A stretch of DNA of 64,000 bases from a virus (lineage: Duplodnaviria; Caudoviricetes): the IMG/VR virus record IMGVR_UViG_3300020036_008739, positions 1 to 64,000 of that record; one strand, 5' to 3'. The notes under the pieces were generated by a model that did not search any database, had not been told where the DNA came from, and was given only the letters and a program-made list of their open reading frames with translations. The translations under genes and the position numbers were made by a program. Below, in pieces: positions 3,111 through 63,658 of the stretch (positions are counted from its first letter, which is position 1; each line of letters starts with the position of its first letter).

Positions 3111-3122
3111 GATAAAACTCCA

Positions 3123-43194: not shown

Positions 43195-43223
43195 AAAAAG
43201 AAACCGCCTGAGTAGTAGGCGGC
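43195..43223 (-). terminator. Rho-independent terminator
   Basis: CCGCCU-ACUACUC-AGGCGG-UUUCUUUUU. Confidence 0.75.
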
Positions 43224-43243
43224 GTTAGTTTACCTAGGACGGC

Positions 43244-44439: not shown

Positions 44440-44648
44440 CGTGAAGTCATCTGTTCAGAACGTTGGATTTTCTCATAATCATCCCGACAATCGGTGTCAC
44501 AAAATAAGCGACAACCACCAACCCTTTCTAAGCAGTTGTAACATGTACCTGTTGGTTTCAAAGCTGGCTGATAAACCACTTGCTTAATAGCAAAAGCTAA
44601 CATTAGCTCTTGAGTAGCCGCGTCTTGATCTTCAATATACTCACTCAT
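44436..44648 (-). CDS. DksA/TraR-like C4 zinc-finger protein
   Basis: DAATQELM helix followed by CYNC...FCDTDC. Confidence 0.7.
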   Translation of the reverse strand: MSEYIEDQDAATQELMLAFAIKQVVYQPALKPTGTCYNCLERVGGCRLFCDTDCRDDYEKIQRSEQMTSR

Positions 44649-44657
44649 GATTACTCC

Positions 44658-47246: not shown

Positions 47247-47260
47247 TGGTTTTCTCCATG

Positions 47261-47288
47261 AAAAAGCCTTCCAATTAAGGAAGGCTTT
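47261..47288 (-). terminator. Terminator-like hairpin abutting the DNA polymerase RBS
   Basis: AAAGCCUUCC-UUAAUU-GGAAGGCUUUUU, then GGAG 3 nt later. Confidence 0.75.
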
Positions 47289-47300
47289 GAGAGTTTTAAA

Positions 47301-48047
47301 TTACTTAACTTCGGAATTACCCACAGTAAGACTAAACGAAATAGTCCCTGTTGTCGGATTAGTCTCTACGGTTGGGTTGGCTGTGATAAAGCTTAAGTTC
47401 GGATCATTCAAAACTTCCGACATAGCTTTAGGCTCTGGCGGTTCTCCGTGTTCATAGGTGATTGTGAAGGAATATTCCAAATCACTATTGTTGACGACGA
47501 ACAGCAGGGGAACTTCGGTTACTGAATGTGCAGAAAGAGCCAACTCCAAGGAATAGTTTAAACTCAAACTACCAGACAAACCCTCAATCAATGTTGAAAA
47601 TTCCGAAGTATCCTGAATGTCCGACCAATCAGCAACGACCACAGCCCCCGTACCATCATTGATCGTCATCAAGAAATTGGCAGTTTCTCCAACGTTATAA
47701 AGACGGTCGTAGCTCAACGCAATACTTGGGTGATTCCCAGAACCAATAACCAAGCCGGAAGCCAGTACGAGATCAAGACCACGTTGGCCTACAGCATCAT
47801 AAACGGGATTCTGTGGGTCTGAGGTATCCGAAGGAACACCCGTCAGCATCACACTGACTTCACCTTGCACGTTCAAAAAAGAGTTAATCAACGGAGCAAA
47901 AATCAGAGATGGAGAACCTTGCGGGTTTCCGTCTGCAACCGCTTTAATCTGCTCCAGCTTAATCATATCGGCTGAAGTAGCAGCGGTAAGCAGCACATCA
48001 GCATCTTCGCTAAGTGTGCGGTTCAATTCATCAATCGTGATGGCCAT
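47301..48047 (-). CDS. Highly acidic hypothetical protein
   Basis: 248-aa ORF, GAGG RBS, many D/E and very few K/R. Confidence 0.75.
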   Translation of the reverse strand: MAITIDELNRTLSEDADVLLTAATSADMIKLEQIKAVADGNPQGSPSLIFAPLINSFLNVQGEVSVMLTGVPSDTSDPQNPVYDAVGQRGLDLVLASGLVIGSGNHPSIALSYDRLYNVGETANFLMTINDGTGAVVVADWSDIQDTSEFSTLIEGLSGSLSLNYSLELALSAHSVTEVPLLFVVNNSDLEYSFTITYEHGEPPEPKAMSEVLNDPNLSFITANPTVETNPTTGTISFSLTVGNSEVK

Positions 48048-48840
48048 TTAAGATTTCCTCGACCTGATCGCCATGAGTGGGTACAGCTAGTATAGCACCA
48101 ATACTGCTGGTTCGTTGGTGGATTATCAGATTTTCTCTGACTTCAGCAAGATGCGGCAACATGGGGTTCACCACGATCCAAAACTGCTTAACCTGCTCCC
48201 ACTCAGCTATTAAGTTTTGAGCTTTCTTGGTCTTGCCAAGAGACTCAATAACTGGCGGTTGTTCACGTTGAGCGATTAAGGCTTGCCGTAAGAGGTGTTT
48301 TTCTTCTTGAGTTAGTTTCAAGAAGGCCGACGCTCCAAAGTTTGTTAATCCTTTGATCTTGTCTGAGGAGTCCCCAACCAAAGTTTTAAAAAGCGTAAGG
48401 TCTTCAGCAGTACAGGGTAGATTGTAAGGCTTATTTGACTGCCATTGAACGTTTGGATTCAATGTTAAGTCGTACAAGTCTTGGTCAACCGTGTGGACTG
48501 TTGTGGGTTTTTCAGTGTCTTGACAAAGAAACCGAATTACATCATCAGCCTCATACTCTGGGATTTGAAGTGATACAAACCCCAAGAGAGGAAGATAGGC
48601 TTTGGTGAAGAAGTCAGCGTATCGAAAGAATTGCTGCATCTCCTCCCCAGAATAGTCCTTAACCTTATAGCCAGAGAAGATTGCACGACGACGAGCGTTA
48701 GCGTTAGCCCCATCTCGAAGCCAATAGACTCGTTCACCAGCTTGGTGTCGAGAATACAACTCCATTGCTAAATCTTGGCAGGTTCTACCTACTTGGAAAC
48801 ACACGCGCAACCAAGCGTTACCATCATAAATATGTTGCAT
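48031..48840 (-). CDS. 5'-3' exonuclease / flap endonuclease (T5 D15 / T4 RNase H family)
   Basis: IYDGN, RRRAIFSGYK, YEADDVI, TVDQDL, LVGDSSDKIKG motifs. Confidence 0.9.
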   Translation of the reverse strand: MQHIYDGNAWLRVCFQVGRTCQDLAMELYSRHQAGERVYWLRDGANANARRRAIFSGYKVKDYSGEEMQQFFRYADFFTKAYLPLLGFVSLQIPEYEADDVIRFLCQDTEKPTTVHTVDQDLYDLTLNPNVQWQSNKPYNLPCTAEDLTLFKTLVGDSSDKIKGLTNFGASAFLKLTQEEKHLLRQALIAQREQPPVIESLGKTKKAQNLIAEWEQVKQFWIVVNPMLPHLAEVRENLIIHQRTSSIGAILAVPTHGDQVEEILNGHHD

Positions 48841-48850
48841 AATCATCTCC

Positions 48851-48881
48851 AAAGAAAAGACCCTCAAAAAGAGGGTCTTTT
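48851..48881 (-). terminator. Terminator-like hairpin abutting the exonuclease RBS
   Basis: AAAAGACCCUC-UUUUU-GAGGGUCUUUUCUUU followed directly by GGAG. Confidence 0.75.
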
Positions 48882-48895
48882 AACTACACCAGTTG

Positions 48896-49711
48896 TTAAA
48901 CCGCTGTGGTCAGATCAAGGGCTGCAACTGCTGGCGAACCTTCCACACCAATGTACTTCAGGGTGAGGGTAGACCAGCTTTTGTTGTTGAAGCTTTGGTC
49001 TTTGCTGCTGATTTCAACGTAAACGTTGTCACCTTCAGAGATTTCCCCATTCTTCAGCAACTGGAGAATTTTGGAAATCAACGCTTTGGCAGAGTTGGTG
49101 AAGGTAGTTTTTGAGGTGATATGCCCCAAATTCGTACCTGCACTGATTTCAGCTTGAGCGCCTTTGGCTTTGATCGGGTGAGCCGCTTGGAACATAATTG
49201 ATGCAGCAGCGTAAGGTGCTTTGTCCGGTGAAACCTGCTTCGCCATCATAACGGCAGATTGCCAAGGTTGGCCAGCATATTCACCAGTGTTGCACATGAC
49301 CCCATCATAAGAACGGATGGTTTTTGGGTCTTCATCTGAACCGTACTTCATTGCGTGGTGCAAACGAATAGTGCTACCTGCACGATAGGCTTGCAGTGTG
49401 ACAATGATAGGGTCAGAGATAGAACGCTCACCAACCAGAACCGCGCCTTTGTCAGAAGGCATGATCCAAAAGTCTGGAACAAACGAGGAATCGAGAGCAT
49501 CCAAATCATCCAAGCTCAAAACCGAACCAGCTTGAACAGCGGCCACTGGTTGGACAATACTAGCCACAGCCAAACCACCACCTGTAGGTGTGGAGCCAGT
49601 TGGGGCAAATGCGTCGTCGATCAGTTGGGTAGCAGTTTTGGCTTCGGTGTTTTCAGCTTTAGCAGCGTCAACAGCTTGGTCGAGAATGTCATCAACAGTT
49701 TGGGTAGTCAT
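48896..49711 (-). CDS. Putative ssDNA-binding/annealing protein
   Basis: Own promoter and terminator, high-expression codon bias, position between helicase and exonuclease. Function is inference. Confidence 0.45.
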   Translation of the reverse strand: MTTQTVDDILDQAVDAAKAENTEAKTATQLIDDAFAPTGSTPTGGGLAVASIVQPVAAVQAGSVLSLDDLDALDSSFVPDFWIMPSDKGAVLVGERSISDPIIVTLQAYRAGSTIRLHHAMKYGSDEDPKTIRSYDGVMCNTGEYAGQPWQSAVMMAKQVSPDKAPYAAASIMFQAAHPIKAKGAQAEISAGTNLGHITSKTTFTNSAKALISKILQLLKNGEISEGDNVYVEISSKDQSFNNKSWSTLTLKYIGVEGSPAVAALDLTTAV

Positions 49712-49761
49712 GGTATTGCTTCCTATTACGGTTCAAGGTTACTGTCCCGAAGGACAAGGGT

Positions 49762-49790
49762 AATTTAACGGGATTTAAACGCCCCGTCAA
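49762..49790 (-). promoter_or_regulatory. Sigma70-like promoter TTGACG-N17-TAAATT with overlapping inverted repeats; C(UUCG)G hairpin at 49743-49756
   Basis: Direct reading of the helicase/SSB intergenic region. Confidence 0.7.
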
Positions 49791-49795
49791 GCGTT

Positions 49796-51256
49796 TTATG
49801 AAAATTCCATCTTAGAAGACCAGATGAAAGCATCATTCGGGTCTCGTGGTCTTGGGAAGCGAACAATTTCGCTTTTAGAATCCACGAGATTAGTGTTGAC
49901 TGATTTGTGATAGACACCCCACATCATATATTGATCTGAGGAATCATCGTACTCCAGTAGATGCACCAATAGGGGTGTATCACGCTTGCCTCGTTTGGCA
50001 CGAGCTAAGGCTTGCTTAAAATCGTCATCCCCATAGTCAAGGGAATGAAAGATGATGTGGTTCAATTTTGACCAGTTGAAGCCAATCCCTGCTGTCTTTG
50101 GTGAGGCTACAATCACATCCAAATCTCCAGCTTGGAACATCCGGTCAATCTCAGCCCGTCTTGCAGCGGATACACTGGCATTGATTAAACCACAGCGGTA
50201 TCCTTGATTGCTTAAAAACTCAAACAACGCTTCTTGCTCGTAGACAAAAGGCGCAAAGATAGCCACTTGGTCTTGAGTCGTTTGAAGAAACTCAAGGATG
50301 TACTGTTGCTTTGGAGTAGTCCCCGTGTAAATGACTTCCTCAGCATAGTCTATGATCTTGCCTTTACGATCCCAATCCACTGGTAAAGCAATTTTATGAG
50401 GGTGGTTGGTGATCTGTCTTAACCGCAAAGCTGTTAAACCACCGTTAGTATCCTCAATAATTGAGTTTTCTAATTCAAGAATCCCTTCGGAGCGAAGCTT
50501 ATCATAAGCTTTGCGCTGGGCTGGCAGCATCTCAAAAGGCACACGCTGAAGAACGGTTGGGATGTCGCCATACACTTCTTTGACAGAAAACTTAATGGCA
50601 TACTTATCAAAGAACTCCTTCAAAACATGATGGTTTCGATACCCAACCACATTCCCCATCAAATCCTTAACCTCATGAGTCTGCTTAAAGTCAGCATAGG
50701 TGGCGTAGTACATGGGGTTAAGAAAGTGGACAAAGAAATAACTATTGGTTAACTTGCCACTTTTTACATGGGTAGCAGTCATTACATGCACCCGATCCAT
50801 GTATTTTATCAACTTCAAAAAGGTTTGACTGCGTTTGGACTCCCAATTTGCAAAGTACAAGTGAGCCTCATCAACAATAACCCCTTTGATATTGGGGTAT
50901 TTACCCAACATCAATTTTAGATTCTTGTTGAAAAATTCAACAGTCATAAGCCAGACTTTGCTGTCTTTCAAGGCAGCTTTTTCTTTCTTCTCAACAGTAG
51001 CGCCATCAGGGATAATAGTGATGTCGTCAGAAGAAAGCCCTGTCCAAGCCATAAGCTCAAGTTTATTCTTCTCGTGAATAGACTTGGTGGAGACCCAAAT
51101 CACACGAATTTGCTCACGCTCAACCATGTACTTAGTATAAATACATGCTGGTGGAGTTTTACCAGTACCCATCTCAGAGCAATCCAATGATCTGGCTTTT
51201 TTCAAAGCGTAGATTAATTGCTTCTTTTGGGTATCAAACAGAGTTAACGCTGTCAT
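49796..51256 (-). CDS. SF2 (SNF2-like) DNA helicase
   Basis: SEMGTGKT, IVDEAH, MTAT, AGIGFN, QALARAKR motifs. Confidence 0.9.
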   Translation of the reverse strand: MTALTLFDTQKKQLIYALKKARSLDCSEMGTGKTPPACIYTKYMVEREQIRVIWVSTKSIHEKNKLELMAWTGLSSDDITIIPDGATVEKKEKAALKDSKVWLMTVEFFNKNLKLMLGKYPNIKGVIVDEAHLYFANWESKRSQTFLKLIKYMDRVHVMTATHVKSGKLTNSYFFVHFLNPMYYATYADFKQTHEVKDLMGNVVGYRNHHVLKEFFDKYAIKFSVKEVYGDIPTVLQRVPFEMLPAQRKAYDKLRSEGILELENSIIEDTNGGLTALRLRQITNHPHKIALPVDWDRKGKIIDYAEEVIYTGTTPKQQYILEFLQTTQDQVAIFAPFVYEQEALFEFLSNQGYRCGLINASVSAARRAEIDRMFQAGDLDVIVASPKTAGIGFNWSKLNHIIFHSLDYGDDDFKQALARAKRGKRDTPLLVHLLEYDDSSDQYMMWGVYHKSVNTNLVDSKSEIVRFPRPRDPNDAFIWSSKMEFS

Positions 51257-51854
51257 AGATGGCTTCCAAGGCTAGAATCTTATAGTCCGCAGCAGTTAAG
51301 CCACGGAACTCATGGTCAAACTCAATCAACGACTCAGGCATACTCGTGAAGAATTGATTCTTCAGAGGGATAAACACCGTTCGTGAAACACCAAAATCCA
51401 TCAGCATTCTTTTATGAGAAGAACCAATGGTTCTGGTTACAGTGGGGAGAATGATTGCTCCCCAGTTGCTATTCCTAACCTCATCTAAGATAAGCTGGCG
51501 GCTGACGGGTTTATTATGCCATGCGTCCCCTTGCATTCGTACTTTCTTAGAGCCTAATTGCTCGGAAAGAAACTGATAGCGCAAGGAGTCTTCCTCAGAG
51601 ATGAAGTAAATATCTGGATTTTTAGCTGCCTTGAAGAACAGACTAAAGAAAGGGTCAGCCATTACCTTTTCAAATAAAGGATGTTTGACAGGCTTTTTAG
51701 CGTATTCAGCCATAAAGTCCAAGAAATTGTGGCTGCTTGCAGATTGGTTAAACCGTGGCTCTGGGTTAGTGGCTAACCCATTTGCAGAAAATTGAATAAT
51801 ACCTTCGATAAAATATCGAAAACCATCGTTGTCCTCATGGTATCCGTTAATCAT
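51234..51854 (-). CDS. Hypothetical protein
   Basis: 206-aa ORF coupled to its neighbours, GAGG RBS. Confidence 0.7.
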   Translation of the reverse strand: MINGYHEDNDGFRYFIEGIIQFSANGLATNPEPRFNQSASSHNFLDFMAEYAKKPVKHPLFEKVMADPFFSLFFKAAKNPDIYFISEEDSLRYQFLSEQLGSKKVRMQGDAWHNKPVSRQLILDEVRNSNWGAIILPTVTRTIGSSHKRMLMDFGVSRTVFIPLKNQFFTSMPESLIEFDHEFRGLTAADYKILALEAIYDSVNSV

Positions 51855-52137
51855 AAAACACCTCGGCTAACTCTGACGGGTCAAAGTTGAATACTCCAAA
51901 AATCAAAACAAGTTCAGTAAATGTGGGGTTGTATTTACCCCACAGAAACTTATCAAGTTTACTGACACTCCATCCTAAGTGGTGCGCTAAGTCACCTTCA
52001 GTCAAACCATCTAGCTCAAATGCCATTTTAGTCTGGCATAAAACCCCAAGCTTTATCAACTTGGGGTCTTTATCACTAGAGCTAATGACCTTAGATTGGC
52101 TTAACCGCATACCTCCGATTAAGCTTTCTTTTGTCAT
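51847..52137 (-). CDS. Small XRE-family HTH protein
   Basis: GLTEGDLAHHLGWSVSKLDKFLWGKYNPTFTELVLIFGVFNFDPSEL is a classic XRE HTH. Confidence 0.75.
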   Translation of the reverse strand: MTKESLIGGMRLSQSKVISSSDKDPKLIKLGVLCQTKMAFELDGLTEGDLAHHLGWSVSKLDKFLWGKYNPTFTELVLIFGVFNFDPSELAEVFYD

Positions 52138-52139
52138 TC

Positions 52140-52388
52140 TCAGTCCTTAAACTTAATATGGATGAGGCCATACGCCCCAAGAAGATAGTTGATAATAAGG
52201 ACGAGTTGATAGATGGCGTAGAACAGCAATAAAAGAACCCCAACGGTCAACCATTGGGGCGCGATTGCTAGATTCTCCAAGGCAGATAAGGTTGTATTCC
52301 TTGGCTTAAAAATGGTGTTCAGAATCATCAAACTGATGACCCACCAAAGCGCCAGCAGTAGCAGAATAGCATACAAGGGGCTTTCCAT
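52140..52388 (-). CDS. Small two-TM membrane protein
   Basis: Two long hydrophobic segments; GGAG RBS before MESPLY. Confidence 0.6.
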   Translation of the reverse strand: MESPLYAILLLLALWWVISLMILNTIFKPRNTTLSALENLAIAPQWLTVGVLLLLFYAIYQLVLIINYLLGAYGLIHIKFKD

Positions 52389-52764
52389 CGGCTTTCTCCA
52401 AAAAAGTTTGAACGGCATCCGCCTGAATATTTACAGGCAGCCACACGCCCAGATGTGTGTTTACATGCTGATCACGCATAAAGTCACTTGTGAAGCAAAC
52501 CACCTGATAGGGTGGTGTCAAACTAACAGCCAAGTATAAGCCACCTGACCGTAATTTTGCCAGTAAAAACAGATCACGTTCGCAATCACCTTCAGGTAAA
52601 TAGCGACCAGAGGATATGTCATCATACTCGTAACAACAGGGTTGACCTTGTTTTTTGAAGTGAAGAAACTCACCTTTAAACCAAGGTTGATGCAGTACAG
52701 AACCATTGCGTAAAACAAGCCAGTATTGGCCTGTTTTATACAACTCAAGGTCAAATGCAATCAT
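52306..52764 (-). CDS. Hypothetical protein
   Basis: ATGA overlap with the upstream gene; C-terminus overlaps the next ORF. Confidence 0.6.
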   Translation of the reverse strand: MIAFDLELYKTGQYWLVLRNGSVLHQPWFKGEFLHFKKQGQPCCYEYDDISSGRYLPEGDCERDLFLLAKLRSGGLYLAVSLTPPYQVVCFTSDFMRDQHVNTHLGVWLPVNIQADAVQTFLEKADGKPLVCYSATAGALVGHQFDDSEHHF

Positions 52765-53096
52765 AAGACAGTCATCCTAAACGTGTCAGCCTCCATATCA
52801 CCAGCGATGCCGTTGATAAGCTGTTGTAACAACATCTTATACGTTAGCTGCCACTCTGTATCAAGGAACAAAGCCTTAAAGTCTGACTGAACAGACAGAA
52901 CAGGCTCTGCGATTGGGTTATCCAAAAGAAAAGACCCTGTTGGAATATGGTAACAAAGACCATCAAACCAAAGGAAGGTGACTTTCCCTAATCGGCAATA
53001 AGCCGTAACCGTGTCGGTTATGGCCAGAGAGCCGTTTCGGTTTAAGGCTGCTACATGGATAGTCAGCCAATCGAGCCAATACTCATATCTACTCAA
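52761..53096 (-). CDS. Hypothetical protein (TTG start)
   Basis: GGAG RBS 8 nt before TTG, directly after a terminator hairpin. Confidence 0.6.
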   Translation of the reverse strand: MSRYEYWLDWLTIHVAALNRNGSLAITDTVTAYCRLGKVTFLWFDGLCYHIPTGSFLLDNPIAEPVLSVQSDFKALFLDTEWQLTYKMLLQQLINGIAGDMEADTFRMTVL

Positions 53097-53109
53097 TACG
53101 TTTCTCCAT

Positions 53110-53136
53110 AAAAAAACCTCCCGATTGGGAGGTTTT
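53110..53136 (-). terminator. Rho-independent terminator
   Basis: AAAACCUCCC-AAUC-GGGAGGUUUUUUU. Confidence 0.85.
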
Positions 53137-53150
53137 GCACCACAGCTATA

Positions 53151-53567
53151 TTACTTCGCGGTGGGTTTGCCTTTTGGGGCATCGGCAGCAGCTTCAGCAA
53201 CCGGAGCAGCTTCAACTTTCGGAAACTTTTCAGCGTGCTCTGGCAGAGAGTATTGAGCACAACGCTTGCCTTCGCTGCTTGCAGTTTTGACCAAACGGTT
53301 GTCTTCGACGAGATTTTTCAATTGAGCCGCAGCAGTGGTATCTTTCAGCAATTGGCTATGCTGGTTGTGATACGCAATGCGCAACTCGTCTTTGGTGGGG
53401 GCAACACCAGCTTCGTTGAGGATTTTGGTCAGATCAAAAAGAGCATCACCGATGTGGTCATTGCGGCCTTTGCTTGGTTTGGGTTGCAATTCTGCTGGCA
53501 AATTGGCTTTGCTCAGCAACTCAGCAGCCGACAGCAGTTTTGGTTCTTGGGTTTCTTGAGCAGTCAT
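53151..53567 (-). CDS. Putative winged-helix DNA-binding protein
   Basis: PTKDELRIAY...TAAAQLKNLVEDNRLVK..GKRCAQYSL wHTH pattern; Ala/Lys/Pro-rich tail; own promoter and terminator. Confidence 0.6.
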   Translation of the reverse strand: MTAQETQEPKLLSAAELLSKANLPAELQPKPSKGRNDHIGDALFDLTKILNEAGVAPTKDELRIAYHNQHSQLLKDTTAAAQLKNLVEDNRLVKTASSEGKRCAQYSLPEHAEKFPKVEAAPVAEAAADAPKGKPTAK

Positions 53568-53612
53568 GATCGTTCTCCGAAAAAAGTTGACTGGTTTACA
53601 TCTCTTGGTGAA

Positions 53613-53645
53613 AGGAATAATGCCTGAGTATTATTCCTCTGTCAA
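53613..53645 (-). promoter_or_regulatory. Promoter TTGACA-N17-CATTAT containing a perfect 9-bp inverted repeat (operator-like)
   Basis: AGGAATAAT-N8-ATTATTCCT at 53613-53638 covers the spacer and -10. Confidence 0.7.
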
Positions 53646-53664
53646 CAACCTAGACGAAAATAAT

Positions 53665-54120
53665 TTAATTAATTCCATACAGCCAATCTGCTGGCACACT
53701 GTAAGCATCAAAACCATCAGGGTCAAGGCTATTTAAGTTTCCAGCGTTAGGCACACAGGGACTGCAAGCCATGCAATGAGCGGTATGTGGGCTTTCAAGA
53801 ATAAAGAAGTTCAAAGCCCCACCAAGCCATGATGATTGGTATTTAACGCCCTCGTATGTACCCACAACTGTTGGGGTTTCACAGTACCAAGAGTCGTTAA
53901 ATGAGTCTTCGTCAAAATCATCGGGGTCAAAAGCTCGGTCAGGATGCTCAAGCTCGTGCTGTTTGCAGAAATCCAGCTTTGCTTGCTCAAGAGCCTCTTG
54001 ATAGCTCAAATCGGTTGCTTGGCGGCCATACAAAAGAGCCTCAACAACCTCATTATCGAGGCTGTTGGCACTGATAACGCCATAGGGGATGTTTGTTTTT
54101 GGGTTAACGTTAGGAATCAT
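53665..54120 (-). CDS. Hypothetical phage protein with acidic linker and CSPCVPNAG motif
   Basis: 151-aa ORF, GGAG RBS, ATGA overlap. Confidence 0.7.
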   Translation of the reverse strand: MIPNVNPKTNIPYGVISANSLDNEVVEALLYGRQATDLSYQEALEQAKLDFCKQHELEHPDRAFDPDDFDEDSFNDSWYCETPTVVGTYEGVKYQSSWLGGALNFFILESPHTAHCMACSPCVPNAGNLNSLDPDGFDAYSVPADWLYGIN

Positions 54121-54434
54121 TTCTTTGCTCCAATGCAGATTGAGAGACCTTGGATCAGGTCAGGTTCGGGAAGATCGGTGACTGCTTTACTTGCACCATG
54201 AAAGTAATCCAAACGGCTGGCCACAATGCTACCGAGAGGAACCTCGATCTCTTCGCCAGTGTCGATGCGGACATGAAACCAGTAGCTGCCGTCTGTGCGA
54301 CGAGCAACTTCAACATGAGCATGGGGGGTTTCGATAATCACAGAGGAAGGCTCTGGATCACGGCGATCACCAAAGAGCTTGATCTTGCAAGCGTCGTCAG
54401 AGTGGATGATTTGGCTGGGGCGAAGTTTAGCCAT
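54117..54434 (-). CDS. Hypothetical protein
   Basis: 105-aa ORF, GGAG RBS. Confidence 0.65.
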   Translation of the reverse strand: MAKLRPSQIIHSDDACKIKLFGDRRDPEPSSVIIETPHAHVEVARRTDGSYWFHVRIDTGEEIEVPLGSIVASRLDYFHGASKAVTDLPEPDLIQGLSICIGAKK

Positions 54435-54711
54435 GATTGATCTCCAAGAGGTTAAGAGCGTTAGTGCTCACAGCATTGTCAAGAATAAGAAAACCAGCAG
54501 CGTTTTGCAGTAGCTCTTCTGGACTTTTATCCCAAGTGTAGTGGTTGAAACTGGCATAATATCGACCATCAATATCTTGCCAGATGTAAGTGCTCCAAAG
54601 GGTGATGTAACCATTAACACCGATGGTCAACACATTTGGGGGATCATCCCCGTAGAGTTTGAATAAACACTCTGGAGATGGAAATTCAGAAACAGGTTTG
54701 AAGCGAATCAT
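54427..54711 (-). CDS. Hypothetical protein
   Basis: GGAG RBS before MIRFKP. Confidence 0.65.
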   Translation of the reverse strand: MIRFKPVSEFPSPECLFKLYGDDPPNVLTIGVNGYITLWSTYIWQDIDGRYYASFNHYTWDKSPEELLQNAAGFLILDNAVSTNALNLLEINHG

Positions 54712-54721
54712 AGGGGTCTCC

Positions 54722-54748
54722 AAGAAAACCCCCTCAATTAAGAGGGGG
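54722..54748 (-). terminator. Terminator-like hairpin
   Basis: CCCCCUC-UUAAUU-GAGGGGG-UUUUCUU then GGAG. Confidence 0.8.
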
Positions 54749-54756
54749 GAGTTTGA

Positions 54757-55830
54757 TTAACGAAACACCTTAACCCCAGCGGTTACGCTTGGATATGTCA
54801 CATAAATGGACTTGGCCTTCTTGTGGTATTCAACCTCAACGCCATGCTGTGCCATTTGTTTGCTGATGTCAGCGCCAGTGTTCTTGATTGACAAGCCGTA
54901 CAGCTTGTTCACCGCTTCGATCAACGCCTCGTCTTCCAGCGAGTAACCCCCACCCAAAAACAAGGCAACTCGTTTGCCGTCATGTCGCAAGCTGTAGGTG
55001 TTTTGACCTTCTTGACCATAAGTACGGGAAGTGCCTTCACGCCAAGTCAGCTTTTTAAACGCAACTGGCTCCAGCGGTTTGAATACCTGAAAAGCAGCAT
55101 CGGGCAGTTTGCTGCGCATGTCCAAGTAGCAAGCATGACACATCTTCCAAACTTCACTTTGGTTGCTAAGTTGGAATACAGCAGGTTTGGTGCAGTGCGG
55201 TGTACTACACATCAGAGATTGATCCATCTTAAGTTTCCTCGACTCGACTAAGGCTTCATAATAGAGGTTTTGCATAACCCCATTACACGACATATCTTCA
55301 GCTACACTCATAAAGGTGTCGGTGGCATCTTGCAAATCAAACTCTTCAGCAAGGTACTGCTCAATCAAAACCTCCATAACAACGCCACGTTCGGCAGCCG
55401 ACCACTCAGTCATAGGGTCGCGGGGAATCTCTGGCTTAATTAAAGGCATATAACCGGAACGAGCAGTACCGTGATACACAAAAGCGTTCAGTAGTTTCTC
55501 TTTATCCACCGCTTGGTGCATATTGATCAACCCAGCGAAGTCAACCTCAAAAACCAATTTGTCGGATTGGGTGCAGTAATCCTTGGCAAAAGTGAGACTC
55601 CAGTTTTGGCCTTTAATGATTTTCTGGCAAGCTTTACTAAGCTCCCACAAAATACGCTCACCGTAGTTGATGCCTACTTTACGATAATAAATGCCAAAAT
55701 CTTGATCCTCGTAATCAGGATGACCTGACTCAATATCCTCCTGCTCAAGAAAATCAGTAGCATAGTGTTCCAACCAGCTTTCGTAAAAGCCGCAGAAAGG
55801 TAAAACCACTGGGTAAAGTAGTTTAGGCAT
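54757..55830 (-). CDS. Multi-domain hypothetical protein with central Cys4 motif
   Basis: N-terminal LPFCGFYES motif, CSTPHC...CHAC, distinct C-terminal region. Confidence 0.7.
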   Translation of the reverse strand: MPKLLYPVVLPFCGFYESWLEHYATDFLEQEDIESGHPDYEDQDFGIYYRKVGINYGERILWELSKACQKIIKGQNWSLTFAKDYCTQSDKLVFEVDFAGLINMHQAVDKEKLLNAFVYHGTARSGYMPLIKPEIPRDPMTEWSAAERGVVMEVLIEQYLAEEFDLQDATDTFMSVAEDMSCNGVMQNLYYEALVESRKLKMDQSLMCSTPHCTKPAVFQLSNQSEVWKMCHACYLDMRSKLPDAAFQVFKPLEPVAFKKLTWREGTSRTYGQEGQNTYSLRHDGKRVALFLGGGYSLEDEALIEAVNKLYGLSIKNTGADISKQMAQHGVEVEYHKKAKSIYVTYPSVTAGVKVFR

Positions 55831-55846
55831 GGTAAAGCTCCACATG

Positions 55847-55868
55847 AAAAACCCTCCAACTGGAGGGC
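55847..55868 (-). terminator. Terminator-like hairpin
   Basis: CCCUCC-AGUU-GGAGGG-UUUUU. Confidence 0.7.
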
Positions 55869-55890
55869 TGTTGTTGAATAAAGGGTTGGG

Positions 55891-56553
55891 TTAGCCGTTA
55901 AGGTCGTGGCAAATGGTAAGCGAGTTATACTCGCCTTGACAGTCTTGGAGGTAATCCAAAATAACCATTAATTTGGTGTAGAACACCGTAAACTCATGGT
56001 TAGTGCAGAGGCTCATAAACTCATCTTCAAGTCGAGTTAAATCCTCTCGTAGCAAAGGCAACTCAGCATTGGTGATTTGAATACGGACACCCAGAAAACA
56101 ATCAATCAAGACCTGAATACTCGGCAGGTGTTTCCACGTCTTGAGCAAGGCAACAAAGTGTTTAACCTGCTTTTGGACTAAAGTATAACCAACCGAGTAG
56201 CCGTCGATACTATTTAGTCGCGTTTGATGAAAACCAACAGGGTACACTAAACCCCCAGCAAAACGGGTTGTGTCAGTATCCATGTAAGCAATCCGAGAAT
56301 AGGCTTCACCATAAACGCTACGCTTAAACATCCACTGGCCTTCCCCTTTATCTGTCAAAGGGTCTTTGGCGAGCCAAGCAATATAGCGTGACCAAACTGG
56401 GATCAAATCAGACCCCATCCGCTGGTATTGCACAAAGTTACGGGAATCTGTGATTTCAGCTTTTTTAACATCTAAGCTATCACAGCGAACGATCAAACCT
56501 TCTTTAATCATCTCCAAGGCGTGAACCAAGGAGATTGAGGCCATCTTCTTCAT
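55891..56553 (-). CDS. Hypothetical protein
   Basis: 220-aa ORF, GGAG RBS. Confidence 0.7.
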   Translation of the reverse strand: MKKMASISLVHALEMIKEGLIVRCDSLDVKKAEITDSRNFVQYQRMGSDLIPVWSRYIAWLAKDPLTDKGEGQWMFKRSVYGEAYSRIAYMDTDTTRFAGGLVYPVGFHQTRLNSIDGYSVGYTLVQKQVKHFVALLKTWKHLPSIQVLIDCFLGVRIQITNAELPLLREDLTRLEDEFMSLCTNHEFTVFYTKLMVILDYLQDCQGEYNSLTICHDLNG

Positions 56554-56936
56554 AATGCGTCTCCAAAAGGACTATATTCAACTTCGTAAGGATGATTAAC
56601 CACCCCGACAACATAATGCTGATCTTCACGGCTGACCTTATTGGTGAAACTCAGCAGTTGGTCTGAGGTATACAACCCTTTGCCACGAGCAGTATGCTCA
56701 AACAGGAAAGCTTGAAACTGATCTTCGGCTCGATCCGAAGTCAGAGACACATGGCGAGGACGCATAGCTACTGGCTGCCAATGGCCGTCAACATAGGCTT
56801 CAACAGACCACGATTGATGCACCGAACCATTGTCGTTTGGCTCACGGTAAATGTTGATTACCATAGCCACCTGTTGTTTCAGGGCTTGCTCAAGAATATC
56901 CACAGCTTCTTGATTGCTGTATATTATGATAGGCAT
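56550..56936 (-). CDS. Hypothetical protein
   Basis: GGAG RBS before MPIII. Confidence 0.65.
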   Translation of the reverse strand: MPIIIYSNQEAVDILEQALKQQVAMVINIYREPNDNGSVHQSWSVEAYVDGHWQPVAMRPRHVSLTSDRAEDQFQAFLFEHTARGKGLYTSDQLLSFTNKVSREDQHYVVGVVNHPYEVEYSPFGDAL

Positions 56937-56949
56937 AATATGCTCCATT

Positions 56950-56970
56950 AAAAAGCCCTCCTAAGAGGGC
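56950..56970 (-). terminator. Rho-independent terminator
   Basis: GCCCUC-UUAG-GAGGGC-UUUUU. Confidence 0.8.
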
Positions 56971-57072
56971 AGGGCGTTAATCGTAACGGCAGAGATACTC
57001 TGTCCGTGAGTAGGGCTTGCACTCAAGCTCAAACCCTCGCGGATATGGCTCCGCAGGTTTGCTCTTGTACTC
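56971..57072 (-). ncRNA. Candidate structured RNA (long irregular hairpin plus short hairpin) in a 100-nt intergenic gap
   Basis: Manual pairing 57019-57070 and 56986-57007; no ORF; ends at a terminator. No family recognised. Confidence 0.35.
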
Positions 57073-59365: not shown

Positions 59366-60090
59366 TAAAGCTCCAAGGTGAGCGTCAACTCACCGTAACT
59401 GATGTGTGGGTGAAACTCTTTAGGGATGTGCTCTAGGATTCCAGAGTTTTCATGATCCCCGTAAAAACCCCAACAGGAATCAGCATAGCTCCCATCCTCA
59501 GATTCTAACGTATAGCAGTAGACTTCGCCACTGACATACTGCCCGTAAGTCTCTAACTCGCACTTCATCATGTGCTCAGCCCACTTAAGACCATCACGGA
59601 GCCAAGCTGGGTGGCCAAGCTTGGTTTTCAAGCCAGCCTCCTCTTTAACCTTGGAGAAGTAGACCACATGTACACCAGCTTGGCCGGAATCCCAAGGACA
59701 AGAAAAGGCGCTGTGAGAGATGGCAACACCGGAATGTTGATACATGTAGATGGGAAGCCAAAACAACTCTAGCTGCTTAGCTGAGTAATTTTGAAGGATA
59801 AAGAGGACTTTTTCCCAATCTAACTCTTCTTCAGCCAAATCGAGCCGATAATCACCCATCCACCAGTTAGGTGGGTTATCAGTGTTAACACCAGCAATAT
59901 CGCTGAGCCAGTGCTTACGTTTGTGGGGTTGAAGCTCGCCCATACGGTCTTGCAGATGGTTGACAAGCATCTTGAATGCGTCGTCATCCCCATAATGATC
60001 CTTCATCACTAATTGAGTGATATTGTCGAAGGCTTCACGAGGGTTTTCACAGTGTTGGTCGTGCTTAATCTCAAGAGTAACTTGAGCCAT
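59365..60090 (-). CDS. Conserved mobile-element protein (ENPRE...LPIYMYQHSG...CPWDSGQ family), function unknown
   Basis: Recognisable motif set seen in phage/ICE early genes; GGAG RBS downstream of hairpin copy A. Confidence 0.7.
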   Translation of the reverse strand: MAQVTLEIKHDQHCENPREAFDNITQLVMKDHYGDDDAFKMLVNHLQDRMGELQPHKRKHWLSDIAGVNTDNPPNWWMGDYRLDLAEEELDWEKVLFILQNYSAKQLELFWLPIYMYQHSGVAISHSAFSCPWDSGQAGVHVVYFSKVKEEAGLKTKLGHPAWLRDGLKWAEHMMKCELETYGQYVSGEVYCYTLESEDGSYADSCWGFYGDHENSGILEHIPKEFHPHISYGELTLTLEL

Positions 60091-60106
60091 GGTGGTTCTC
60101 CACTGG

Positions 60107-60151
60107 GTTGGTTAATTGAATGCACCCCTCAGAGTGCATTTGTTAATCAAC
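60107..60151 (-). promoter_or_regulatory. Conserved UGAG-tetraloop RNA hairpin, copy A
   Basis: AAUGCACUC-UGAG-GGGUGCAUU, 2x3 internal loop, 9-position lower stem. Confidence 0.75.
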
Positions 60152-60308
60152 TCAAAACAACTGTCCCAATTTTGTTGCCGTTGCTATCTAACAAAGTACC
60201 TCCACCTTGAGAGATTTTGCGAGCCGCTTGTTCCAGAACATCCTCCAACTCGTGGGGATTATCATCAAAAGCAGCATTATCAGTATCAAACTCAATTGAA
60301 ATCTTCAT
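60147..60308 (-). CDS. 53-aa acidic protein (DTDNAAF...DSNGNKIG family; not in ORF track)
   Basis: ATGA overlap with the upstream gene; motif common in phage early genes. Confidence 0.7.
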   Translation of the reverse strand: MKISIEFDTDNAAFDDNPHELEDVLEQAARKISQGGGTLLDSNGNKIGTVVLS

Positions 60309-60868
60309 TCACAATACCCCAGATGTTTAACCCAAACGATTTGGGTTGGTTGCAATTCAGGTTTATGCTGATCATGCCAAGCTTTGTGAGCTTTCTTTAG
60401 CTGAGCAAAGGTCACAGGCTCGTCAACAAAAAAGCCCTCAAACTTGTTTGTGTTTTTATCAGCCGTGTAAATTTCCCCCATTAGCTTGTACTCAATGGGT
60501 ACTTTAACACACTGATAATAATCCACCAATTGGCCGCCATCTGCGAAAATCTCAGTGCATTCCAAGTAGGTGGGAACCACGAGGCTTTCAGCATACTCTT
60601 CCCAAAGGGTATGCCATTGCTTGTCGTGAACATAATCCTTTTGGGTTGGACGTTTGGGTTTGACTTGATTAACCCAACTTTCAGCCAATTGGGTTGCCCA
60701 TTCCAGCGACTGTACCTCACGAATCCAAGGCAGAGTATCTGAGTCTTTAACAGCACGAGCAACCCGATATTTGCCGTTGTGGATTTTAGTAACAGATGCC
60801 TCCAAGGTGGGCTGCTTAACCCCTTTGGAATTAAACAAAGGTTCAGATTTTAACTGCGTTACGAGCAT
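60305..60868 (-). CDS. Hypothetical protein
   Basis: 187-aa ORF, GGAG RBS. Confidence 0.7.
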   Translation of the reverse strand: MLVTQLKSEPLFNSKGVKQPTLEASVTKIHNGKYRVARAVKDSDTLPWIREVQSLEWATQLAESWVNQVKPKRPTQKDYVHDKQWHTLWEEYAESLVVPTYLECTEIFADGGQLVDYYQCVKVPIEYKLMGEIYTADKNTNKFEGFFVDEPVTFAQLKKAHKAWHDQHKPELQPTQIVWVKHLGYCE

Positions 60869-61167
60869 GGTAATAACTCCACAGAATCACTGCCGGAATG
60901 CAGTGGTTTGAAACGAGGGACTGTTTGATAAGGGTATTGCCCAGTCAAACAGTACATTAGGCTTGGGTTTTTGCTTAAAACCTCATCACCAAAATCATCC
61001 ACGGTTACAGTATGCGTGAACGGAAAGGTGTTGCTTTGACGAATCCACATCACACGGTATGTTTTGTGGCGGTAAGGGGGAATTAATTCCCCCTCTTCCA
61101 AAAGGACATAACGTTCAAACTGCAAATCAGGTAAACCCAGAAGGGCTATATTCTCTTGCAACGTCAT
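60859..61167 (-). CDS. Hypothetical protein
   Basis: 102-aa ORF, GAGGG RBS, ATGA overlap. Confidence 0.6.
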   Translation of the reverse strand: MTLQENIALLGLPDLQFERYVLLEEGELIPPYRHKTYRVMWIRQSNTFPFTHTVTVDDFGDEVLSKNPSLMYCLTGQYPYQTVPRFKPLHSGSDSVELLPCS

Positions 61168-61586
61168 TTGATAAGACCCTCAAACAATTTGTACCAAACT
61201 TCGGCAGACTTGGGGATTTGTACATAATAGCCGCTATGTACTCGCCCCAAAGAGGATTCCCACTCATACCAATTGTGAGTGCGGACAATTAGTTTGGACA
61301 GTTGCTCCCACTCATCAGCAGTTAGAAAATGCTGGCGACCCTCGTAAACCACAGCAACGCAGTTAGCCAAGGGTTTCTTGCGCTTGATCACGGTGGTGTC
61401 AATCTTTAAGCAGAAATTTCGCTCATCGTTAACCGCCACAATCTTGGCCAAAGCTTCTTCGCGCAGCTTATAACCAAAAGAAAGTGTTCGATTCTCCCAA
61501 GCGATCATAAAAGAATCCACCAAACGGTGGGATAGGTTGTGGCGTTCGCAGTCGTCACGACTGACTTGATAGACCTGATGAGCCAT
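61164..61586 (-). CDS. Hypothetical protein
   Basis: 140-aa ORF, AGGAG RBS. Confidence 0.7.
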   Translation of the reverse strand: MAHQVYQVSRDDCERHNLSHRLVDSFMIAWENRTLSFGYKLREEALAKIVAVNDERNFCLKIDTTVIKRKKPLANCVAVVYEGRQHFLTADEWEQLSKLIVRTHNWYEWESSLGRVHSGYYVQIPKSAEVWYKLFEGLIK

Positions 61587-61592
61587 AATGGG

Positions 61593-61709
61593 TTACTCCT
61601 TGGGTTTTAGAGCCGTGGTGGTTGAGTTGGTGGTTAAGGCAAACGATTGCTCTGGGCGATTTGGAACCACAAGGATTTTTTGGCCGTCCTCTGCATAGAC
61701 GCTGAACAT
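61593..61709 (-). CDS. 38-aa peptide (not in ORF track)
   Basis: MFSVYAEDGQKILVVPNRPEQSFALTTNSTTTALKPKE; GGAG RBS directly after hairpin copy B. Confidence 0.55.
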   Translation of the reverse strand: MFSVYAEDGQKILVVPNRPEQSFALTTNSTTTALKPKE

Positions 61710-61724
61710 GGTGTATCTCCACTG

Positions 61725-61767
61725 TTGACTAATTGAATGCACCCCTCAGAGTGCATTTGTTAATCAA
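61725..61767 (-). promoter_or_regulatory. Conserved UGAG-tetraloop RNA hairpin, copy B
   Basis: Shares an identical 38-mer with copy A; 8-bp lower stem UUGAUUAA/UUAGUCAA. Confidence 0.75.
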
Positions 61768-61821
61768 TCGTCGTTTAAGGCTTCGACCTTAGAGATTAAA
61801 GCACCACAACATTGGGTAGCT

Positions 61822-61944
61822 TCATTGCTTACCTCCACGGTTGTGGCGACGTTTTTTGCCACCACGATTGTGTTTGATTACGGTGATCCCTTTGAACAAG
61901 GGGGTGTCAATGAGGTGGTTTTCGGTTTTCTTCACGGGGGTCAT
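61822..61944 (-). CDS. 40-aa basic peptide with duplicated HNRGGK motif
   Basis: ATGA overlap with the upstream ORF stop; C-terminus KHNRGGKKRRHNRGGKQ. Confidence 0.55.
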   Translation of the reverse strand: MTPVKKTENHLIDTPLFKGITVIKHNRGGKKRRHNRGGKQ

Positions 61945-62114
61945 CTCCCAACGGTTGGTGAATTGAGCAAGTTGCTCGGTGGATAAGCGCAAAGAGAGTG
62001 TGTGGTAAATAAAGCTTCGTAATCCGAAGCTTTCCCACCCCAACGCTCAGCCCGTTCTTTTGCAGAGGGGACTAAAATAATCGGTTTACCGCAGAGGGTG
62101 CATTTGCGAGGCAT
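61941..62114 (-). CDS. Small Cys-containing protein (CTLCGKPI...THSLC)
   Basis: GGAG RBS before MPRKC; possible Zn finger. Confidence 0.6.
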   Translation of the reverse strand: MPRKCTLCGKPIILVPSAKERAERWGGKASDYEALFTTHSLCAYPPSNLLNSPTVGR

Positions 62115-62374
62115 GGCGATCTCCACCAGAACAGGTTGGTTTTCTCAGTGTCTAGGACGGAGCCTACATACTGAGCGTTGAAAACAGGAGCTTCAAAAAG
62201 CTCCCCCTTACGCACGATCATCAGTTCAAATCGGCGTAAGGGTTTGTTAAATGGTTGAACAACGTACACATAAGGCACATTGTTAATTCGAGAATACTTG
62301 ATGATTCGTGATCCTTCAGGAAGCACCAAACCTTGGCGTGTAAAACGCCCAAGTTTGTATTTTACGATCTGCAT
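62072..62374 (-). CDS. Hypothetical protein
   Basis: GGAG RBS overlapping the base of hairpin copy C; start MQIVKY. Confidence 0.65.
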   Translation of the reverse strand: MQIVKYKLGRFTRQGLVLPEGSRIIKYSRINNVPYVYVVQPFNKPLRRFELMIVRKGELFEAPVFNAQYVGSVLDTEKTNLFWWRSPCLANAPSAVNRLF

Positions 62375-62383
62375 ATTGATCTC

Positions 62384-62430
62384 CAATCAACTTGTAAATG
62401 CACCCCTCAGAGTGCATTAAAAGTTAATTG
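62384..62430 (-). promoter_or_regulatory. Conserved UGAG-tetraloop RNA hairpin, copy C
   Basis: Same upper stem; different 10-bp lower stem CAAUUAACUU/AAGUUGAUUG. Confidence 0.75.
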
Positions 62431-62431
62431 C

Positions 62432-62524
62432 TTAGAATCTGAATAATGACCTCTGATTTGTTTGGGGATTATTCTCATCCACCAAACAAATCAGTGATTG
62501 TGGCTTTGCCTCCAAGAAGGCCAT
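62432..62524 (-). CDS. 30-aa peptide (not in ORF track)
   Basis: TAATG overlap and GGAG RBS; MAFLEAKPQSLICLVDENNPQTNQRSLFRF. Confidence 0.45.
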   Translation of the reverse strand: MAFLEAKPQSLICLVDENNPQTNQRSLFRF

Positions 62525-62922
62525 TATGTTTGCTCCATCAAAGAAATGTCAAAGGGGATAAACGACCCCTTGCCAGTTACAGCATCGGCTGCCCAATAAT
62601 ACCATTGGTTGTCACGAATAAAAACTTCGCAGCCTTTAAACGTTTTGCCAAGTACCTTGGTATAGCCATCAATCACAAAAGGCAAAGGCATCCAACCGCA
62701 AGGGGTTACGATGCGCACCTCTTCAGAACCCATAGCTTGAGGCTTGCTCAAATTGCCTGAAGTCAGGATATAGCCTTCCGGTGTCCGAACCTGCTTCAAA
62801 GCAGGGTAATACGTCCACCCTTCAGGAAGTTTGTGGGTGGTTGTGGCTTTGGCTTGCTCAGGCTCTTCAAAAGATACAACCCAATGATCGTGGTTCCAAA
62901 CCCACCAAATCCGTACTTTCAT
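62524..62922 (-). CDS. Hypothetical protein
   Basis: 132-aa ORF, GAGG RBS. Confidence 0.65.
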   Translation of the reverse strand: MKVRIWWVWNHDHWVVSFEEPEQAKATTTHKLPEGWTYYPALKQVRTPEGYILTSGNLSKPQAMGSEEVRIVTPCGWMPLPFVIDGYTKVLGKTFKGCEVFIRDNQWYYWAADAVTGKGSFIPFDISLMEQT

Positions 62923-63329
62923 TTTACTTTCCTCACGTCAATGATTTGGCCAAGGTTAAGTTGCTCAGCTTCCCAATTGGCTGTGTTTTGATCAGCCGCA
63001 GGTACATGAGCGATATGATAATGAGAGTGCATCCAACGGCCAGTGGGTAACTCTTGACCCATAAGGTGGTGGGGAATATACAAGACCTCATACCAAACCA
63101 CAGCAGCATCCCAAAACAAATAACCATGCTGGCCAAGCGCAACCTTAGCCATTGGGTTACGCTTCATGGAAGCCAGCAGCATTTGTGGAGAGAAATGTTT
63201 TGGTTTGGCTGCTGCGGAAAAACGATGACTCCTTTGAGGTTTACTGGCTTCATAAAGAAACTGAGCAGCTTCCTCACCATTAACCACTCGGCAATCGCCA
63301 CTCTGCGCATCTTGATATACAAAAGCCAT
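62919..63329 (-). CDS. Hypothetical protein
   Basis: 136-aa ORF, GGAG RBS, TAATG overlap. Confidence 0.65.
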   Translation of the reverse strand: MAFVYQDAQSGDCRVVNGEEAAQFLYEASKPQRSHRFSAAAKPKHFSPQMLLASMKRNPMAKVALGQHGYLFWDAAVVWYEVLYIPHHLMGQELPTGRWMHSHYHIAHVPAADQNTANWEAEQLNLGQIIDVRKVK

Positions 63330-63592
63330 TACTTCTTCTCCAAAACAGTGTTGATCTCTCGAAGATCAGCTTCGAGGTTTTGCCGAGCAACCCGAATGTC
63401 TTGCTCAAGAGCTTGAGCCAGTAGTGCGTCCACAGCAAGCAGATTCAAATGCTCTGCCATAAATTCGGTGCGAGGCAATACCTCTTTATTGTTGGCATCA
63501 ATAATTTGGATGTGTAAGCCAGCGCCGTGGTAGGCATCAAAGCCCTTACGCAGCTTTGCTAAAGCCGCGAGTTTCTTTTGGATTTCAGACAT
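63329..63592 (-). CDS. Small coiled-coil hypothetical protein
   Basis: AGGAG RBS downstream of hairpin copy D. Confidence 0.65.
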   Translation of the reverse strand: MSEIQKKLAALAKLRKGFDAYHGAGLHIQIIDANNKEVLPRTEFMAEHLNLLAVDALLAQALEQDIRVARQNLEADLREINTVLEKK

Positions 63593-63609
63593 CGGTTTTC
63601 TCCTGTGGG

Positions 63610-63658
63610 TAAATCTCTTTAGGGAGTCAGCCCTCAGACTGACTCGAAAAGAAATTTA
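63610..63658 (-). promoter_or_regulatory. Conserved UGAG-tetraloop RNA hairpin, copy D (sequence-divergent, structure-identical)
   Basis: GAGUCAGUC-UGAG-GGCUGACUC, UC/CCU internal loop, 11-bp lower stem. Confidence 0.75.

Follow-up and report, generated by a model that had tools for sequence, protein, structure and literature searches.

Among described systems, the closest to the elements reported here are the RNase III sites of phage T7, intergenic hairpins at which the early messenger RNA (mRNA) of that phage is cut. According to published work on the determinants of RNase III recognition (Pertzev and Nicholson 2006, PMC1540722), a typical substrate has the length of two helical turns, and internal loops restrict cleavage to one strand, leaving protective 3' hairpins. 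A distal box of UA/UG, with a true wobble pair, is a positive recognition determinant, binding is blocked by a G-C or C-G pair at position 2 of the proximal box, catalysis is blocked by a G-C or C-G pair next to the scissile bond, and the sequence and position of the tetraloop have no influence (PMC1540722). Here we compare these sites with four intergenic hairpins, designated A to D, on the minus strand of a window comprising bases 1-64000 of the 73,379-bp IMG/VR record IMGVR_UViG_3300020036_008739, an uncultured tailed phage; positions given below as genome positions beyond 64000 lie in the same record outside the window. The layout of the four hairpins is nearly that of the T7 sites, and they are therefore most likely familiar cut-and-cap signals rather than a new system. 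The initial annotation of this DNA had put them forward as its best candidate for an undescribed regulatory system, a claim that our analysis does not support: they look like a known device in a new phage lineage, and they open no new kind of regulation.

All four hairpins are present where the initial annotation had placed them on the minus strand, as confirmed by the sequence and by folding with RNAfold. In hairpin A (60107-60151), a lower stem with one A.C mismatch is separated by a 2x3 internal loop from a 9-bp upper stem that carries the UGAG loop; the hairpin scores 62.2 bits with a covariance model built from the four copies themselves and one strain variant. Hairpins B (61725-61767; 64 bits), C (62384-62430; 59.7 bits), and D (63610-63658; 56.6 bits) have lower stems of 8, 10, and 11 bp, respectively, each with one G.U pair and each followed by the same 2x3 internal loop. 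RNAfold returns a single bracket pattern for B, C, and D, namely lower stem, 2 nt, 9 bp, 4-nt loop, 9 bp, 3 nt, and lower stem, with energies of -20.3, -21.4, and -22.3 kcal/mol (z -5.1, -4.6, and -2.95). Hairpin A is weaker (-16.6 kcal/mol, z -1.6) because of the A.C mismatch in its lower stem, and its minimum-energy register differs, the common layout still being possible. The shared layout that had been claimed (9-bp upper stem, 2x3 loop, lower stem of 8-11 positions) is thus the direct fold of B-D and can be adopted by A, and the core CA[C/G]UC-UGAG-GG[G/C]UG was also given correctly. The accompanying argument that these are RNA elements rather than a DNA operator stands for B, C, and D, which fold about 5 kcal/mol better as sense than as antisense RNA, and fails for A, where the preference is reversed.

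An indication that the fold matters comes from comparing the copies with one another. Hairpins A, B, and C have identical upper hairpins. In contrast, the upper stem of D differs from theirs at four of nine pairs, all four by compensatory changes and with the apical UC-UGAG-GG unchanged, which bears out the earlier observation that D has a different upper stem and nevertheless keeps its pairing. The five upper-stem pairs that never vary are pair 2 (A-U), pair 5 (C-G), pair 6 (A-U), pair 8 (U.G), and pair 9 (C-G). Over an ungapped 43-column alignment, 98.8% of cells are paired, compared with 76% when partners are shuffled and 28-47% when partners are slid, and changes on both sides of the pair are seen at 11 of 17 pairs among the copies. 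As D keeps the geometry with an unrelated sequence, the fold itself appears to be under selection. A strict descriptor of the layout required a tetraloop on a 9-10 bp upper stem, a 2x3 internal loop, and a lower stem with 7 or more pairs. Applied to all 73,379 bp on both strands, it returned the four intervals A-D to the base plus one match in a coding region at 40311-40357; the same descriptor found one match in total over 20 shuffled genomes. As the initial annotation had suggested, the covariance model was also searched against the rest of the genome and related phages. Neither the model nor relaxed descriptors found any further copy in the genome, and the model had no match in the fetched relatives fJoAci01 and JWF.

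The hairpins occupy a consistent position with respect to their neighbouring genes. Hairpin A sits between a 53-aa open reading frame (ORF), whose TGA stop (60147-60149) falls inside the 5' arm of the hairpin, and a 241-aa gene, the TAA stop of a 30-aa ORF (62432-62434) lies immediately 5' of hairpin C, and the first bases of hairpin D are the TAA stop (63656-63658) of a 197-aa gene; in A, C, and D, then, the upstream stop codon falls in, or right at, the 5' base of the lower stem. On the other side, the lower stem is followed by GGAG at a distance of 5, 4, 0, and 6 nt in A, B, C, and D, respectively. These Shine-Dalgarno sequences, all on the minus strand, are at 60098-60101 after A (5 nt past the hairpin), with the ATG of the 241-aa gene at 60088-60090; at 61717-61720 after B, with the ATG of a 38-aa ORF at 61707-61709; at 62381-62384 after C, with the ATG of a 100-aa DUF7352 gene at 62372-62374; and at 63600-63603 after D, with the ATG of an 87-aa gene at 63590-63592. 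For hairpin C, the last base of the lower stem doubles as the first G of GGAG. No U-tract follows any of the four copies, so both parts of the earlier description, the missing U-tract and the GGAG 0-6 nt downstream, hold throughout. Among the other intergenic hairpins of the same strand, many are terminator-like and directly abut GGAG.

For the comparison with T7, the gaps of the T7 genome that hold its early RNase III sites R0.3, R0.5, R1, R1.1, and R1.3 were folded in RNAfold, with cuts at coordinates that we take to be 890, 1468, 3138, 5887, 6450, and 13892 (presumably those of Dunn and Studier 1983). With these assumed coordinates, the cut falls 3 nt past the upper stem in four of five sites. 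The T7 site R1 folds into a bracket string identical to that of B, C, and D (lower stem, 2x3 loop, and a 9-bp upper stem capped by a tetraloop), and R0.3 and R1.1 fold with upper stems of 9 and 10 bp, tetraloops, and a 2x3 loop. Closure of the loop by C-G, a U.G at pair 8, and an A-U at pair 2 are common to hairpins A-D and to T7 R0.3, R1, and R1.1, and the apex reads UC-UGCG-GG in T7 R1 as against UC-UGAG-GG in the phage hairpins. Both groups are two-tiered with an internal loop that is asymmetric by one nucleotide, and both are intercistronic among small early genes, lie shortly before the next Shine-Dalgarno sequence, and have no U-tract. The predicted distance from cut to ATG is 19-28 nt here versus 25-35 nt at four of five T7 early sites, with R1.1 about 120 nt from its gene. 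There are also clear differences. The stem sequences of the phage hairpins have no homology to those of the T7 sites, the lower stems are longer and more regular than in T7, and the T7 sites conserve stem sequence and vary the loop whereas the phage hairpins conserve the loop and vary the stems. Additionally, the hairpins belong to a siphovirus unrelated to T7 in which no RNA polymerase of its own was found (a weak absence, as explained below), and their cleavage is a prediction.

Supplementing the comparison of folds, the covariance model was applied to the T7 genome. Its best match in the 7.8-kb T7 early region was to T7 3104-3146, the R1 hairpin in the 0.7/1 gap (a weak match at 16.6 bits, E 0.08), and this match was full-length and free of gaps. 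In the remaining 31.7 kb of T7, its best match was to 13857-13900, in the 4.5/4.7 gap holding R4.7 (11.8 bits, E 4.9; again weak), and R4.7 is named as a T7 RNase III site (PMC6938266). We treat these matches as suggestive only.

The published recognition rules can be laid over the hairpins by way of R1.1, in which C9:G30 is position 2, U12:G27 and C13:G26 lie between the boxes, and 11 bp separate the cut from the loop. From this numbering we infer that the distal box corresponds to pairs 8-9 of the upper stem, proximal position 2 to pair 2, and position 4 to the first position of the internal loop. All four copies have a duplex of 9 bp plus 8-11 bp, or about two helical turns, and the asymmetric 2x3 internal loop forms in B-D and can form in A. 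At pair 8, all four copies have the U.G wobble, as do T7 R0.3, R1, and R1.1. Pair 2 is A-U throughout, even in D where both neighbouring pairs have become G-C, and the first internal-loop position is always mismatched (A.C, A.C, U.U, and C.C in A-D). On the putative mapping, the invariant pair 8, the invariant pair 2, and the mismatch at the loop edge would be what the RNase III rules predict.

Taken with the genomic setting, these likenesses make it reasonably probable, by analogy with T7, that the four elements serve as signals for intercistronic RNA processing of the kind known from T7 early mRNA. The genome is of siphovirus type, with a gpA-type terminase, a family A DNA polymerase, SbcC-like and SNF2-like proteins, a ribonucleotide reductase, and a 2129-aa tape measure protein with a transglycosylase domain; the record's 121-bp terminal repeat resembles an assembly overlap. 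The DNA polymerases of Acinetobacter phages fJoAci01, TCUP2199, and EAb13 share 44% identity with that of this phage, and those of Achromobacter phage JWF and Caulobacter phage Seuss share 37-40%; the replication module is syntenic with that of fJoAci01. All genes from about 34.8 to about 68 kb, a range that includes every hairpin locus, are on the minus strand. Early transcription probably starts outside the window, at genome 67.9-68.9 kb, where 1 kb of AT-rich non-coding DNA holds the best sigma-70-like matches, and the first strong terminator downstream of the four hairpins is near 56.95 kb. A domain search found no RNase III domain in the phage genome, and a phage-encoded RNase III is rejected on that ground. 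No T7-like RNA polymerase domain was matched either, although this is a weak absence, as the control search also matched nothing. With neither enzyme supplied by the phage (the polymerase with that reservation), host enzymes are implied. Scans of 30 early proteins against PHROG and Pfam gave no functional lead.

In such a scheme, the phage would depend on host RNA polymerase, and its small early genes would be transcribed from the minus strand into one long polycistronic RNA reaching from about 67.9-68.9 kb to about 56.95 kb. Each hairpin would fold on this early RNA between a stop codon and the next Shine-Dalgarno sequence. Its lower and upper stems, stacked into a helix of roughly two turns, would be bound by host RNase III. 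Owing to the 2x3 internal loop, the enzyme would cut only once, on the 3' side and about 3 nt past the upper stem, as in T7 R0.3, R1, and R1.1. A stable 9-bp hairpin would then form the end of the upstream message and shield it from 3' exonucleases, and the downstream message would begin 19-28 nt before its ATG with an unstructured Shine-Dalgarno sequence. The initial annotation had offered RNase III-type processing sites as one of two possible identities, and this part gains support from the geometry shared with T7 R1, the coinciding determinants, and the ranking of R1 and R4.7 first by the model; cleavage itself, the identity of the enzyme as RNase III, the location of the cut, and the effects on stability and translation are what we infer from them.

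If this is correct, T7's layout, down to the wobble-pair position and the A-U of pair 2, has been reached by a siphovirus that is unrelated to T7 and only a distant relative of Acinetobacter and Achromobacter phages. The determinants of E. coli RNase III would then seem to be general enough to be recognised from sequence alone, and a simple descriptor could serve to annotate mRNA processing sites in metagenomic phages. The four hairpins also provide natural substrate variants, with stem sequence free and geometry fixed, for probing the rules of RNase III.

Several points weigh against RNase III processing. Hairpin A has the A.C mismatch and folds better as antisense RNA. The predicted cut lies 10 positions from the loop with a 9-bp upper stem (T7 R0.3 and R1 also have 9 bp), and a minimal R1.1 substrate suffered a 50-fold loss of activity on shortening from 11 to 10. 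The internal loop of R1.1 is drawn in the literature as 4/5 nt and not as 2x3 (PMC6121014). RNase III does not explain the invariant UGAG loop, and the determinant rules are those of the E. coli enzyme, which may not be the host's. Among the controls for the covariance model, GC-rich DNA gave no match, but AT-rich DNA gave short partial matches of up to 15.3 bits. Finally, the covariation is only between paralogous copies, because only strain-level relatives were found, and since A and B are near-duplicates, there are effectively about three independent sequences.

A blastn comparison of the early region with 50,697 phage records gave no match, a 14-mer core in IMG/VR gave 55 single and apparently chance matches, some of them ordinary terminators, a 20-mer had no match in metagenome contigs, and protein-guided scans turned up nothing usable. 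Homologues of the 241-aa and 362-aa neighbour proteins were either strain-level variants only or proteins of unrelated phages without such hairpins, and the cultured relatives fJoAci01 and JWF have no such hairpin family. Proteins 99% identical to the 241-aa protein are encoded on five further JGI contigs and on contigs from Logan. Hairpins A and D are identical in all of the strain variants; B and C are not, and their variation bears on the alternatives considered below.

The alternative that survives best, although we regard it as unlikely, is that a factor recognising the apical UC-UGAG-GG binds the hairpins on the early RNA and acts in nut-like antitermination or controls translation of the following gene. 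Indeed, D and A/B/C agree in all 8 apical nt even though four of the seven other upper-stem pairs differ, the terminators that adjoin Shine-Dalgarno sequences at about 43-57 kb are downstream of all four sites, and a candidate factor is encoded between C and B in the form of a basic 40-aa peptide with a tandem HNRGGK motif (61822-61944, minus strand). This peptide is rich in Arg, Gly, and Lys, carries the HNRGGK motif at its end, and is followed by an overlapping 9-codon mini-ORF; it had no family match. In lambda, the nut sites and N similarly combine RNA hairpins placed early in an operon having downstream terminators with a small arginine-rich peptide encoded nearby. However, boxB of lambda is a 5-bp stem with a GNRA-like pentaloop that follows a single-stranded boxA, whereas the phage hairpins are two-tiered structures of 43-49 nt, present in four copies, one per gene junction, with neither a boxB-like stem and GNRA-type pentaloop nor a boxA consensus. 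A partial TTAACAA likeness to the boxA of rrn is seen in A and B only, and there it is paired in the lower stem. The spacing of the four sites at 0.7-1.6 kb, each filling the gap from stop codon to Shine-Dalgarno sequence, is not the nut pattern either.

Four of the eight conserved apical bases form the U.G and C-G pairs that are also present in T7 R0.3 and R1 and that fit the distal box. They are accounted for without a loop reader, which leaves only UGAG over, and in one strain, L063, the loop of copy B is CGAG instead. A loop reader would require neither the constant 2x3 loop nor the long lower stem, and no RNA-binding or antiterminator family was matched among the early proteins. The second identity offered by the initial annotation, a binding site for a protein that reads the UGAG loop, is not needed but keeps a low probability. 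Its more specific form, in which a phage factor such as the 40-aa Arg/Gly-rich peptide reads the UC-UGAG-GG apex and the hairpins are cis sites of processive antitermination or mRNA handling, we consider rather improbable. Were it true, host RNA polymerase would pass at least seven intrinsic terminators abutting Shine-Dalgarno sequences further down the same strand, and the logic of nut and N would recur with a different RNA architecture in a virulent siphovirus.

As regards the terminators themselves, at least nine terminator-like hairpins with U-tracts, each followed within a few nucleotides by GGAG and a start codon, are found at 43200-57000 (minus strand) and at genome 69123-69852. Two of these, nearly identical and with AGCCCCT as the stem and TTCG as the loop, lie ahead of two paralogues at genome 69852 and 69140.

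Passive hairpins could also occupy these junctions. As intercistronic stabilisers or insulators resembling repetitive extragenic palindromic (REP) elements, they would block 3' exonucleases and separate the translation of adjacent genes without being cut by RNase III. Stable hairpins without U-tracts, located within an operon directly after stop codons, would suit this role. So would the situation in strain L063, where hairpin C is missing along with the 132-aa and 30-aa ORFs upstream of it and the Shine-Dalgarno sequence of the downstream gene is retained; this joint loss ties the hairpin to the upstream cistron. Nevertheless, we find a purely passive role quite unlikely. A passive barrier could do without a fixed 2x3 loop, a fixed 9-bp upper stem, and the invariance of pair 8 (U.G) and pair 2 (A-U), and the other intergenic hairpins of the same operon are in fact simple stems. 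Furthermore, without a cut or a terminator, no 3' end arises that would need protection.

Lastly, the elements might act mainly as DNA, as palindromic cassettes that spread or promote gene shuffling in the manner of promoter early stem-loop (PeSL) cassettes, miniature inverted-repeat transposable elements (MITEs), REP elements, or attC sites, with the RNA fold as a by-product. Several features of the junctions speak for this. Hairpins A and B have about 70 nt in common, including the ribosome-binding site and start context, and the flanks of C are those of A swapped. A fifth copy of the A/B flanks is present at genome 65703-65740 (minus strand, outside the window), with the end of an upstream ORF, GGAG, and a CACCATG start context, but precisely the inner 31 nt are missing from it; in A, a direct ATTAAC repeat flanks this segment. 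In every strain, it is followed only by a 3-codon ORF. This copy could be a decayed site, through deletion between the 6-nt repeats, or an unfilled one, and it indicates that junction modules do recombine. The gene content beside B and C also varies between strains. The ORF after hairpin B (61593-61709, minus strand) is a 38-aa remnant here, compared with 102 aa in strains L063 and L067, as 150 nt of the gene are missing between two short TTAACC repeats, and the loss of hairpin C from L063 is described above.

Such modules are known elsewhere: the PeSL cassettes of T4 and the start-associated sequences of mycobacteriophages (SAS/ESAS) are likewise short repeated intergenic modules at the starts of small early genes. 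Here too, the repeats border strain-variable genes, and A, B, and the hairpin-less fifth site have one ribosome-binding site and start module. Unlike PeSL, A, B, and D have no sigma-70-like promoter, and structure is conserved rather than sequence, with D preserving only the fold. The attC sites of integrons are also folded imperfect palindromes between small cassettes, arranged as stem, unpaired spacer, and stem, and the ends of hairpin C approximate the attC motifs RYYYAAC and GTTRRRY. In contrast to attC, the upper stem is perfect and has no extrahelical bases; D lacks the core motifs, and A and B have them in reverse. The smallest attC sites are about 55-57 nt, and the elements, at 43-49 nt, are below that size.

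A principal role at the DNA level is very improbable on this evidence. Hairpin D has neither flank nor stem sequence in common with the others and yet keeps the geometry through compensatory changes, and in three of the four copies one strand is favoured by the G.U pairs. Neither a tyrosine recombinase or other integrase (no PF00589 match) nor, by domain search, a Y1 transposase is encoded in the genome, and the L063 deletion, which leaves the ribosome-binding site of the downstream gene intact, ends inside the upper stem of C and not at a core site. A role as a DNA cassette can coexist with a function in RNA, including the processing signal that we favour. As an integron attC site or REP-like mobile element proper, however, the family is rejected, given the missing PF00589 and transposase domains and indel ends that lie off core sites.

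The remaining candidates can be dismissed briefly. Intrinsic terminators are rejected because no T-run follows any copy and the terminator scan lists other hairpins but none of the four; a lambda-type nut site because of the 9-bp stem, UGAG tetraloop, and missing boxA consensus; a CsrA-type site because the loop has no GGA; and a sigma-70 promoter, by promoter scan, at A, B, and D. Hairpin promoters of the N4 type have a 5-7 bp stem and a 3-nt loop on the template strand and are used by a giant virion RNA polymerase; these are rejected because the largest ORFs of the genome encode the tape measure and a tail protein rather than a virion polymerase, and the template-strand fold contains a C.A mismatch. 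A ribozyme or other known RNA family is rejected because a search of Rfam, another check that had been suggested, gave no known family at the hairpins, with nothing relevant at E<=1 across 56000-73379 and nothing reaching gathering score in the window.

A few further observations concern the surroundings of the hairpins. The early region has its best sigma-70-like match (TTGACA, 18 nt, CATAAT; 11/12) at 62523-62552 on the minus strand, at the end of the 132-aa gene and about 95 nt upstream of hairpin C, which might consequently also sit in the leader of an internal transcript. Outside the window, at genome 65945-67868 on the minus strand, three paralogous early genes (244, 146, and 158 aa) match phrog_8153, a family of unknown function, and have 70%-identical DNA repeats in common. 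Non-coding, GT-rich, microsatellite-like arrays lie upstream of the early genes at genome 71079-71199 and about 72926-73001, also outside the window; they are of GCGTGT type and, on the minus strand, GGGTGT type, and adjoin a pair of 39-nt exact direct repeats.

A different family of intergenic hairpins was encountered through a homologue of the 241-aa protein on an unrelated GC-rich phage contig of 77.9 kb (ENA ERZ27263695 k141_317780). A 20.7-kb locus of this contig has about 30 consecutive intergenic gaps with a conserved two-hairpin module, followed by CATGAGGAAC and a start codon. The module consists of two short covarying hairpins, the second with a loop starting in AAU, and has no Rfam match; as a family, it is much larger than that of the four hairpins described here.

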